A DNA stretch of 64,000 nt, taken from positions 322,276,001 to 322,340,000 of the forward strand of contig OZ024741.1 in the NCBI GenBank assembly GCA_964016885.1. The letters run 5' to 3'. A program made the position numbers and the translations under genes. The notes beneath the pieces are model-generated. The model worked only from the letters and a program-made list of their open reading frames with translations, was not told where the DNA came from and did no database searches. Every line of letters starts with the position of its first letter. Position 1 is the stretch's first letter. Source of the DNA: Eledone cirrhosa (lineage: Eukaryota). This document shows, piece by piece, positions 12,713 to 17,647 of this stretch.

Positions 12713-12786
12713 ATATTCGAAAATATTCTGTATGTTTATAATAAACATTTTGAAGACCTAATCGCTATAGAATAGAATACGTCACG
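12713..12786 (-). repeat. 74-bp inverted copy of part of the 311-bp unit at the 5' end of the array
   Basis: Exact reverse complement of 12856-12929. Confidence 0.95.
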
Positions 12787-15700
12787 ACGATTTCTAACGA
12801 GAATGAAACGCGTAGACTTACTTCCCTTGCTTTTATCGAGAATCTAATTGTAATACGTGACGTATTCTATTCTATAGCGATTAGGTCTTCAAAATGTTTA
12901 TTATAAACATACAGAATATTTTCGAATATTCTATGTCTATATTCACATATATATCGCTATTTCAGAGCATTTATTCCAATTTCTAATTTCTGCCGGACCG
13001 GCAACCGCTCTTTCAAACCAGTTCCTGTACACAGCTAAGTATTCTATAAGTCTCTAGCTGTGTCATTCTCGATAAAAGCACTGGATATGTAGTCCTGACG
13101 ATTTCTAACGAGAATGAAACGCGTAGACTTACTTCCCTTGCTTTTATCGAGAATCTAATTGTAATACGTGACGTATTCTATTCTATAGCGATTAGGTCTT
13201 CAAAATGTTTATTATAAACATACAGAATATTTTCGAATATTCTATGTCTATATTCACATATATATCGCTATTTCAGAGCATTTATTCCAATTTCTAATTT
13301 CTGCCGGACCGGCAACCGCTCTTTCAAACCAGTTCCTGTACACAGCTAAGTATTCTATAAGTCTCTAGCTGTGTCATTCTCGATAAAAGCACTGGATATG
13401 TAGTCCTGACGATTTCTAACGAGAATGAAACGCGTAGACTTACTTCCCTTGCTTTTATCGAGAATCTAATTGTAATACGTGACGTATTCTATTCTATAGC
13501 GATTAGGTCTTCAAAATGTTTATTATAAACATACAGAATATTTTCGAATATTCTATGTCTATATTCACATATATATCGCTATTTCAGAGCATTTATTCCA
13601 ATTTCTAATTTCTGCCGGACCGGCAACCGCTCTTTCAAACCAGTTCCTGTACACAGCTAAGTATTCTATAAGTCTCTAGCTGTGTCATTCTCGATAAAAG
13701 CACTGGATATGTAGTCCTGACGATTTCTAACGAGAATGAAACGCGTAGACTTACTTCCCTTGCTTTTATCGAGAATCTAATTGTAATACGTGACGTATTC
13801 TATTCTATAGCGATTAGGTCTTCAAAATGTTTATTATAAACATACAGAATATTTTCGAATATTCTATGTCTATATTCACATATATATCGCTATTTCAGAG
13901 CATTTATTCCAATTTCTAATTTCTGCCGGACCGGCAACCGCTCTTTCAAACCAGTTCCTGTACACAGCTAAGTATTCTATAAGTCTCTAGCTGTGTCATT
14001 CTCGATAAAAGCACTGGATATGTAGTCCTGACGATTTCTAACGAGAATGAAACGCGTAGACTTACTTCCCTTGCTTTTATCGAGAATCTAATTGTAATAC
14101 GTGACGTATTCTATTCTATAGCGATTAGGTCTTCAAAATGTTTATTATAAACATACAGAATATTTTCGAATATTCTATGTCTATATTCACATATATATCG
14201 CTATTTCAGAGCATTTGTTCCAATTTCTAATTTCTGCCGGACCGGCAACCGCTCTTTCAAACCAGTTCCTGTACACAGCTAAGTATTCTATAAGTCTCTA
14301 GCTGTGTCATTCTCGATAAAAGCACTGGATATGTAGTCCTGACGATTTCTAACGAGAATGAAACGCGTAGACTTACTTCCCTTGCTTTTATCGAGAATCT
14401 AATTGTAATACGTGACGTATTCTATTCTATAGCGATTAGGTCTTCAAAATGTTTATTATAAACATACAGAATATTTTCGAATATTCTATGTCTATATTCA
14501 CATATATATCGCTATTTCAGAGCATTTATTCCAATTTCTAATTTCTGCCGGACCGGCAACCGCTCTTTCAAACCAGTTCCTGTACACAGCTAAGTATTCT
14601 ATAAGTCTCTAGCTGTGTCATTCTCGATAAAAGCACTGGATATGTAGTCCTGACGATTTCTAACGAGAATGAAACGCGTAGACTTACTTCCCTTGCTTTT
14701 ATCGAGAATCTAATTGTAATACGTGACGTATTCTATTCTATAGCGATTAGGTCTTCAAAATGTTTATTATAAACATACAGAATATTTTCGAATATTCTAT
14801 GTCTATATTCACATATATATCGCTATTTCAGAGCATTTATTCCAATTTCTAATTTCTGCCGGACCGGCAACCGCTCTTTCAAACCAGTTCCTGTACACAG
14901 CTAAGTATTCTATAAGTCTCTAGCTGTGTCATTCTCGATAAAAGCACTGGATATGTAGTCCTGACGATTTCTAACGAGAATGAAACGCGTAGACTTACTT
15001 CCCTTGCTTTTATCGAGAATCTAATTGTAATACGTGACGTATTCTATTCTATAGCGATTAGGTCTTCAAAATGTTTATTATAAACATACAGAATATTTTC
15101 GAATATTCTATGTCTATATTCACATATATATCGCTATTTCAGAGCATTTATTCCAATTTCTAATTTCTGCCGGACCGGCAACCGCTCTTTCAAACCAGTT
15201 CCTGTACACAGCTAAGTATTCTATAAGTCTCTAGCTGTGTCATTCTCGATAAAAGCACTGGATATGTAGTCCTGACGATTTCTAACGAGAATGAAACGCG
15301 TAGACTTACTTCCCTTGCTTTTATCGAGAATCTAATTGTAATACGTGACGTATTCTATTCTATAGCGATTAGGTCTTCAAAATGTTTATTATAAACATAC
15401 AGAATATTTTCGAATATTCTATGTCTATATTCACATATATATCGCTATTTCAGAGCATTTATTCCAATTTCTAATTTCTGCCGGACCGGCAACCGCTCTT
15501 TCAAACCAGTTCCTGTACACAGCTAAGTATTCTATAAGTCTCTAGCTGTGTCATTCTCGATAAAAGCACTGGATATGTAGTCCTGACGATTTCTAACGAG
15601 AATGAAACGCGTAGACTTACTTCCCTTGCTTTTATCGAGAATCTAATTGTAATACGTGACGTATTCTATTCTATAGCGATTAGGTCTTCAAAATGTTTAT

Positions 15701-17647
15701 TATAAACATACAGAATATTTTCGAATATTCTATGTCTATATTCACATATATATCGCTATTTCAGAGCATTTATTCCAATTTCTAATTTCTGCCGGACCGG
15801 CAACCGCTCTTTCAAACCAGTTCCTGTACACAGCTAAGTATTCTATAAGTCTCTAGCTGTGTCATTCTCGATAAAAGCACTGGATATGTAGTCCTGACGA
15901 TTTCTAACGAGAATGAAACGCGTAGACTTACTTCCCTTGCTTTTATCGAGAATCTAATTGTAATACGTGACGTATTCTATTCTATAGCGATTAGGTCTTC
16001 AAAATGTTTATTATAAACATACAGAATATTTTCGAATATTCTATGTCTATATTCACATATATATCGCTATTTCAGAGCATTTATTCCAATTTCTAATTTC
16101 TGCCGGACCGGCAACCGCTCTTTCAAACCAGTTCCTGTACACAGCTAAGTATTCTATAAGTCTCTAGCTGTGTCATTCTCGATAAAAGCACTGGATATGT
16201 AGTCCTGACGATTTCTAACGAGAATGAAACGCGTAGACTTACTTCCCTTGCTTTTATCGAGAATCTAATTGTAATACGTGACGTATTCTATTCTATAGCG
16301 ATTAGGTCTTCAAAATGTTTATTATAAACATACAGAATATTTTCGAATATTCTATGTCTATATTCACATATATATCGCTATTTCAGAGCATTTATTCCAA
16401 TTTCTAATTTCTGCCGGACCGGCAACCGCTCTTTCAAACCAGTTCCTGTACACAGCTAAGTATTCTATAAGTCTCTAGCTGTGTCATTCTCGATAAAAGC
16501 ACTGGATATGTAGTCCTGACGATTTCTAACGAGAATGAAACGCGTAGACTTACTTCCCTTGCTTTTATCGAGAATCTAATTGTAATACGTGACGTATTCT
16601 ATTCTATAGCGATTAGGTCTTCAAAATGTTTATTATAAACATACAGAATATTTTCGAATATTCTATGTCTATATTCACATATATATCGCTATTTCAGAGC
16701 ATTTATTCCAATTTCTAATTTCTGCCGGACCGGCAACCGCTCTTTCAAACCAGTTCCTGTACACAGCTAAGTATTCTATAAGTCTCTAGCTGTGTCATTC
16801 TCGATAAAAGCACTGGATATGTAGTCCTGACGATTTCTAACGAGAATGAAACGCGTAGACTTACTTCCCTTGCTTTTATCGAGAATCTAATTGTAATACG
16901 TGACGTATTCTATTCTATAGCGATTAGGTCTTCAAAATGTTTATTATAAACATACAGAATATTTTCGAATATTCTATGTCTATATTCACATATATATCGC
17001 TATTTCAGAGCATTTATTCCAATTTCTAATTTCTGCCGGACCGGCAACCGCTCTTTCAAACCAGTTCCTGTACACAGCTAAGTATTCTATAAGTCTCTAG
17101 CTGTGTCATTCTCGATAAAAGCACTGGATATGTAGTCCTGACGATTTCTAACGAGAATGAAACGCGTAGACTTACTTCCCTTGCTTTTATCGAGAATCTA
17201 ATTGTAATACGTGACGTATTCTATTCTATAGCGATTAGGTCTTCAAAATGTTTATTATAAACATACAGAATATTTTCGAATATTCTATGTCTATATTCAC
17301 ATATATATCGCTATTTCAGAGCATTTATTCCAATTTCTAATTTCTGCCGGACCGGCAACCGCTCTTTCAAACCAGTTCCTGTACACAGCTAAGTATTCTA
17401 TAAGTCTCTAGCTGTGTCATTCTCGATAAAAGCACTGGATATGTAGTCCTGACGATTTCTAACGAGAATGAAACGCGTAGACTTACTTCCCTTGCTTTTA
17501 TCGAGAATCTAATTGTAATACGTGACGTATTCTATTCTATAGCGATTAGGTCTTCAAAATGTTTATTATAAACATACAGAATATTTTCGAATATTCTATG
17601 TCTATATTCACATATATATCGCTATTTCAGAGCATTTATTCCAATTT
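12786..17647 (+). mobile_element. Tandem array of ~15.6 x 311-bp hammerhead-containing units (non-LTR retrozyme-like concatemer)
   Basis: CTGACGA recurs at 13095+311n (n=0-14); units look identical except A>G at 14217; no ORF in the track; (TA)n on both sides. Confidence 0.92.
13065..13154 (+). ncRNA. Minimal type I hammerhead ribozyme, first complete copy of 15; predicted cleavage after GUA at 13125
   Basis: agtc-CTGACGA(13095-101)-t ttct aacg agaa t-GAAA(13116-19)-cgcg-TA-gact; closed by a perfect 16-bp helix attctcgataaaagca/tgcttttatcgagaat. Confidence 0.9.

Follow-up and report, generated by a model that had tools for sequence, protein, structure and literature searches.

How does a short RNA element that encodes no protein come to lie in a genome as a long and nearly uniform tandem array, and which enzyme placed it there? 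The question is raised by a locus of the octopus Eledone cirrhosa, within a stretch of 64,000 nt (assembly GCA_964016885.1, contig OZ024741.1, positions 322,276,001 to 322,340,000 of the forward strand) that is called the window here and whose positions are counted from its first letter. At this locus, a 311-bp unit with a hammerhead ribozyme is repeated 15.6 times, with Penelope-like elements (PLEs) on both sides. A preliminary description, made from the letters alone, took the array for a retrozyme concatemer. That identification is supported: repeat size, type I hammerhead, GC content, lack of coding capacity and self-pairing all agree with it, and the array is on every testable feature a retrozyme without long terminal repeats (a non-LTR retrozyme), whose cleavage and circles are predicted. 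The concatemer was probably inserted in one PLE-driven event.

The array and its immediate boundaries are as follows.
12786..17647, plus strand: tandem array, 15.6 x 311 bp, 35% GC (as in the single unit), non-coding
12713..12786, minus strand: inverted piece of the unit, an exact 74 nt, the same as 12856-12929
14217, plus strand: sole substitution of the array, A to G
17648..17720, no strand: right flank, a short AT-rich filler and then TA runs

Tandem Repeats Finder gives a period of 311, 15.6 copies and a span of 12786-17651, and in a block-by-block comparison 14 of the 15 full 311-nt blocks equal the reference block while the remaining one differs by the substitution at 14217. Both the copy number and the single substitution first noticed are thereby confirmed. 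The core motif CTGACGA occurs 15 times, at 13095+311n and exclusively on the plus strand; all 15 of these cores are complete with stems I and II, and a sixteenth is truncated as had been reported, because the array starts at 12786 inside the ribozyme core. The limits originally given, 12786..17647, stand for the tandem part but not for the 5' boundary, which extends to 12713 via the inverted piece; the 3' end may reach 17651 at the cost of one mismatch. The earlier statement that the array has no open reading frame agrees with a longest ATG frame of 30 amino acids in the unit. The array has no LTR layout, and no transfer RNA gene was found in 12500-14000 (a primer-binding site and a polypurine tract were not searched for), and no part of the unit was found to be derived from a transfer RNA.

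Each complete unit carries the same ribozyme, given here for the first copy.
13089..13132, plus strand: first complete type I hammerhead, recurring every 311 nt in 15 copies
13089-13094 with 13126-13132, plus strand: stem I, AGTC/GACT, with one bulged U
13095-13101, plus strand: core, CTGACGA
13102/13115, plus strand: U.U pair (10.1/11.1) at the base of stem II
13103-13106 with 13111-13114, plus strand: stem II, TTCT/AGAA, 4 bp
13116-13119, plus strand: GAAA
13119-13124, plus strand: stem III, palindrome ACGCGT
after 13125, plus strand: predicted cut, GUA triplet
13065..13154, plus strand: perfect 16-bp helix closing loop 1, 13065-13080 with 13139-13154
13126..13436, plus strand: predicted monomer, cut site to cut site, 311 nt

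The stems, the GAAA, the palindrome and the GUA triplet with its cut after 13125 all lie where the preliminary description placed them, and the 16-bp helix has no mismatch, as claimed. Among 20,000 dinucleotide shuffles of the unit, one contains the strict hammerhead pattern and five a loose one; a 16-bp stem appears in none of 200 shuffles, the longest shuffled stem being 15. This helix is predicted to keep both ends of the cleaved monomer together. The linear 311-nt monomer folds at -72.8 kcal/mol (z -4.2, with 0 of 100 shuffles as good) and the circular monomer at -68.6, against -48.2 +/- 5.0 for shuffles (n=100, best shuffle -61.5), all folds being computed models from which co-transcriptional folding could differ. 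For the two-ribozyme stretch 13060-13470, a forced double hammerhead reaches -107.7 kcal/mol, about equal to the unconstrained minimum of -108.0, whereas two cis ribozymes reach -89.3; stem I pairs with a probability of 0.74-0.96 when swapped between units and of 0.02-0.03 in cis. The suggestion that neighbouring units supply the dimer partner is therefore supported in the folding models.

With a helix I of 6 bp, a helix II of 4 bp and a helix III of 1 bp under a palindromic loop, the motif has the canonical type I layout. The marks of minimal hammerheads (a helix II of 7-8 bp, a short helix I and no real helix III) are absent from the unit, and its initial likening to minimal type I hammerheads does not hold (PMC4209133). 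According to the same source, canonical animal type I hammerheads cleave weakly alone and well as dimers, and most PLE hammerheads are of the minimal type. The weak features of the unit have counterparts in the axolotl: the single-pair helix III under a palindromic tetraloop resembles HHR_Amex1, and the U.U pair at the base of helix II resembles HHR_Amex2 (PMC7229834). Unlike either, the motif of this haplotype unites both features, a comparison made by description and not by sequence. Unit size and the predicted need for a dimer are also shared with axolotl retrozymes and with newt satellite repeats of 330-350 bp (PMC7229834).

As an element, the array is ordinary. Animal non-LTR retrozymes have non-coding units of 150-450 bp with a type I hammerhead and less than 50% GC (PMC7229834), and the unit resembles them in size, GC content, one type I hammerhead per unit, lack of coding capacity, a self-paired predicted circle and the presence of PLEs in the genome. 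Arrays of up to 62 units are described from corals (PMC7229834) and of 180-300 units from the axolotl and a beetle (bioRxiv 10.64898/2026.07.22.740005). In the latter work, which surveyed 35 genomes, arrays contain as many as 300 units, the average length in insects, amphibians and coral is 313-342 bp, there is a peak at seven units for 75% of families, and retrozymes are derived from the pseudo-LTRs of PLEs. Since published arrays reach 62 to 300 units, the size of this one is ordinary, as is its design; 15.6 units is above typical but unremarkable, and the element class is already well described in both sources. The sequence family of the unit matched no searchable record, and a literature search of limited coverage found it reported from neither octopus nor cephalopods.

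What distinguishes the locus from animal non-LTR retrozymes as described is the clear PLE-type structure of its ends. The inverted piece joins the 5' end of the array head-to-head, with 1 nt common to both, so that the structure is bounded on either side by a 3' end of the RNA. Counted from the cut site, this end is at 115 nt on the left and at 168-172 nt on the right, and TA repeats follow on both sides. The array thus ends in the layout of PLE insertions, the published marks of which are an inverted 5'-truncated copy at the 5' end, a tail of 30-40 bp and a microsatellite target (PMC8557442), the tail reflecting two internal start sites of the reverse transcriptase (RT) (PMC11167929). Insertions of Hydra and Neptune/Nematis PLEs share with the array the inverted 5'-truncated copy, the two offset 3' ends and the TA-repeat target (PMC8557442, PMC11167929), and PLE insertions also share an RT start that is internal and at least about 100 nt beyond the cut site (PMC11167929). 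Unlike PLE insertions, the array has no reading frame, its offset is 53-57 rather than 30-40, and its unit is unrelated to the Hydra-type pseudo-LTRs of the window. PLEs within the window have end offsets of 89 and 99 nt, and for all eight hammerhead-type PLE ends that three motifs detect in the 64 kb, TA repeats begin 46-152 nt beyond the cut site. No report of PLE-type insertion marks on retrozymes was found, again within limited literature coverage. Between the inverted piece and the unit, identity is still 100%, indicating that the whole structure, and with it the array, is young.

Twin priming of the L1 type is rejected, because the outer end of the inverted piece is not adjacent to the 5' break of the array. 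A separate observation is that the 5' breaks of three insertions (12786, about 62555-62572 and about 17915) lie in or beside hammerhead cores, as if the RT stalls there.

From this anatomy and from the literature, a sequence of events may be proposed in which transcription, excision, circularisation and the PLE helper are taken from published systems. A donor array would be transcribed, and adjacent units would exchange their stem I strands and pair through their ACGCGU palindromes, forming a double hammerhead that excises 311-nt monomers. The 16-bp helix would keep the ends together and a host ligase of the RtcB type would close the circle. A PLE endonuclease acting in trans would nick TA repeats, and the PLE RT would begin copying at an internal position of the RNA, 115-170 nt beyond the cut site, once per DNA strand. 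One complementary DNA (cDNA) would then make 15.6 turns of the circle, or follow an uncleaved multimer, whereas the other would stop after 74 nt, the two cDNAs being joined head-to-head. The array passes 15 cut sites with the junctions unchanged, and a cleaved linear monomer is therefore an unlikely template. Between an RNA circle and an uncleaved multimer the balance is about even; the published model is one of RtcB ligation and rolling-circle copying.

Several points nevertheless weigh against a single PLE-driven insertion of a self-processing RNA. In vitro, 8 of 9 Xenopus retrozyme dimers remained uncut (bioRxiv 10.64898/2026.07.22.740005), and in a reconstituted PLE ribozyme cleavage was dispensable and unprocessed RNA was the main template (PMC11167929), so that a circle is not required. 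In animal non-LTR retrozymes a target-site duplication, when present, exceeds 4 bp; here the flanks have only TA repeats in common, from which no duplication can be separated, and none is visible at the array; the end offset exceeds the published tail, and the insertion footprint is read at one locus. The unconstrained ensemble gives stem II a probability of about 0.1 and the inter-unit stem III one of 0.24-0.26, and Rfam found no hammerhead at gathering score in the whole window, nor at E<=10 in 12300-13500. The best Rfam match, a microRNA model, was dismissed as a reflection of the inverted junction.

The unit is also present outside this assembly. Six public sequencing runs, from four studies with four organism labels, contain 70-87% of its sampled words. 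Four of these (X1, X4, X5 and X6) were compared in detail as contigs of unrecorded type, and the unit was present in all four. X1 yields 527 contigs (293 at >=99% identity, 117 at 95-99, 84 at 90-95 and 33 under 90), whose summed depth of about 100,000-560,000 is not equal to a copy number; they show an abundant and mixed family. Ten X1 contigs exit the unit at 17619 (+140) into AT repeats, a position that is not an end of this array, pointing to further insertions of this type. X4, X5 and X6 each yield one 340-nt self-closing contig (310+30) with no coding sequence attached, which we take to be a 310-nt cycle; such a contig fits a DNA tandem and an RNA circle alike. No RNA run is among the listed carriers of the unit, which has no bearing on its expression, and pattern scans matched neither metagenome contigs nor viral contigs (0 each).

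In the four runs, all five places that vary at a share of >=5% lie in the ribozyme (17453-17482). With pairing read by hand, all five keep the predicted fold: the variants fall at free position 7, in loop II and at U10.1, where a change to A closes the U.U pair, and stem I has two 1-nt deletions, of which the loss of C at 17482 makes the stem a continuous 6 bp and the one at 17481 is harder to interpret. Both deletions lie 2-3 nt after the cut site and may reflect junction repair at ligation. The roughly 280 nt of the unit outside 17453-17482 hold no variant at 5% share. In one X1 contig, of low depth (2.65), a joint begins precisely where the cut is predicted (17479), with 5 extra letters before the match resumes at 17526; as a single contig, it could be noise. 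A 151-nt contig of X6 (record 12), of which 36 nt match 17596-17631 with 5 differences, may represent a diverged second subfamily, its loose ends being still unit-like by eye.

These runs bear on whether the uniformity or the copy number of a real array could be a product of assembly or polishing. At two places the alleles of the window make up about 17% and 16% of the summed X1 depth and are common to all 15 units. The array is therefore clonal and not a polished average of its family, as long as the family sampled in X1 is the same one; should X1 be the source sample, which is possible, it would not be independent. An assembly artefact would have to account for these minority rather than majority alleles, for the one private substitution and for ends that make biological sense, and is very improbable, even though the runs were compared as contigs, not reads, and 53 letters at the right junction are masked as repeat.

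A clonal array would likewise result if a PLE had inserted one or two units with the inverted head and these had then grown in place by slippage or unequal exchange, with the ribozyme as a passenger. Growth of this kind is favoured in bioRxiv 10.64898/2026.07.22.740005, where multimers are enriched near telomeres and centromeres, and the window contains other large simple arrays. Against it, the 15 units have only one private substitution and no shared variants, and there is therefore no trace of stepwise growth, a test to which a single variant lends little power. The structure is also young, as the undiverged inverted piece indicates, and the variants of the family are predicted to keep their fold. 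Growth in place is accordingly considered unlikely, and the single insertion of a ready-made concatemer is preferred.

If a PLE provided the enzyme, the nearest candidates are the neighbours of the array, which belong to the Hydra type.
10026..12617, minus strand: left neighbour, a 5'-truncated Hydra-type PLE, context and not part of the array
11094-12280, minus strand: its thumb, linker and endonuclease pieces, interrupted by a TA run
10133, minus strand: its own hammerhead
12398-12617, plus strand: its inverted pseudo-LTR copy, with a hammerhead at 12429
17720..17925, minus strand: Hydra-type pseudo-LTR fragment with hammerhead, TA runs on both sides, 81% identical to 62290-62482
18013..20324, plus strand: right neighbour, a Hydra-type PLE frame, 5' end missing, RT intact

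The array had been described as lying between two Penelope RTs. PLEs do lie on both sides, but the left one is without an RT core, and the right one is missing its 5' end, with the frame broken in the endonuclease (about 20055-20112). The left PLE shares the inverted-end layout (10026-10167 against 12398-12536). Assignment to the Hydra clade follows the motifs of PMC8557442 (EKT for DKT, a CxCX5C linker, and CxxC and CxH motifs in the right PLE) and the 295 homologs of its frame at E<=1e-10 (8000 candidates scored), of which the best named one is from an octopod, at 40% identity. Pfam recognised none of three long pieces of the flanking proteins and none of six homologs, and a PDB search with these proteins gave no match.

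The preliminary description also held that the unit does not match the pseudo-LTRs of these neighbours, and this is so. The Hydra-type pseudo-LTRs are alike in 5 of 6 pairs (<=1/100 shuffles), whereas the unit scores at shuffle level against all four such regions on both strands, none of seven anchored comparisons with Hydra-type ends rises above chance, and blastn finds only matches of the TA type. Two alignments to the unit that no shuffle of 100 equalled were dismissed: 10030-11049 is TA repeat, and 20320-20700 is a gapped, AT-rich match of 65 nt in a non-homologous place. The motif GAGTGCTT occurs four times in the window, at 12557 (+), 17784 (-), 37862 (+) and 62377 (-), each time in a Hydra-type pseudo-LTR tail, 58-86 nt past the cut site, where it closes a hairpin opened by ACTC. 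It is a candidate recognition signal for the Hydra-type RT and is absent from the unit. The neighbours are broken and their pseudo-LTRs share a motif that the unit lacks, and they are therefore probably not the helper. The proposal of a non-autonomous element borrowing PLE RT fits the PLE-type ends, with the flanking PLEs improbable as the source of that RT. Hydra-clade PLEs insert into TA repeats (PMC8557442), and this shared target best accounts for the position of the array next to them.

A different PLE in the window is a lead to the helper.
37940..38075, minus strand: 3' end and hammerhead of a Neptune/Nematis-type PLE, about 100 nt after the cut site weakly unit-like
38067, minus strand: its hammerhead
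38532-39095, minus strand: Neptune/Nematis-type endonuclease (CX4CxxC linker, CCHH)

Anchored at the cut site, the 110 nt that follow it in the unit beat 499 of 500 shuffles (one reached the score) and 3666 of 3668 random anchors in their likeness to this 3' end, and 0 of 284 matched anchors reached the score. The PLE also terminates about where the inverted piece does. The likeness is low (about 55-60% by eye), emerged after 22 comparisons (14 plus 8), comes partly from an AT-rich end (9/1370 at 60 nt) and has no counterpart upstream of the core; for these reasons, the Neptune/Nematis type is a lead only as the candidate helper clade.

The same likeness could be read in another way, namely that the unit is the pseudo-LTR of a coding PLE elsewhere in the genome and the array a by-product with no family standing by itself. 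Among 57 Xenopus retrozyme families, 24 are homologous to known elements, 21 of 22 of these being PLEs, at the pseudo-LTRs (bioRxiv 10.64898/2026.07.22.740005). The weakness of the likeness counts against this reading too, as do the lack of any blastx match of the unit among 128 PLE proteins or pieces (mostly Hydra-type), the closed cycles without a coding flank in three of the four runs, and a canonical motif where most PLE hammerheads are minimal (PMC4209133). A pseudo-LTR origin is thus improbable, more so than growth in place, and a self-standing retrozyme moved by a PLE is retained. A more specific version, held tentatively and with less than even confidence, is that the locus directly records rolling-circle target-primed reverse transcription of one 311-nt circle, through 15.6 rounds with a single error, by a PLE enzyme that would most likely be of the Neptune/Nematis type. 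On this version, the stretch of 115-170 nt that follows the cut site would serve as the signal that the enzyme reads.

Other features of the window stand apart from the array. Neptune/Nematis-type pieces extend over 37940-43360 on the minus strand; this region also has another endonuclease (41535-42044) and an inverted repeat of 800 bp (39997-40801/42389-43188). Hydra-type endonuclease fragments at 49924-50351 are paired head-to-head, another inverted PLE insertion. In 22258-31283, a 10-bp unit forms an array of 3 kb and TAG triplets form one of 4 kb, and 1441-5901 contains several frames of 130-370 codons without a stop, most of them on the minus strand.

In the available parts of the literature, PLEs are proposed to move animal retrozymes, with no helper named and no insertion footprint shown, and one review states that retrozyme repeats have no conserved motif pointing to a helper. 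Ordinary as an element, the array has its value as a clean test case for how retrozymes move: the locus shows a PLE-type footprint, predicts where the RT starts and offers natural ribozyme variants for comparison. An active PLE protein is available in vitro (PMC11167929), which makes both the circular or linear nature of the template and the clade of the helper directly testable. Should the rolling-circle version be true, the hypothetical partnership between retrozymes and PLEs would gain physical evidence as well as a defined minimal substrate.

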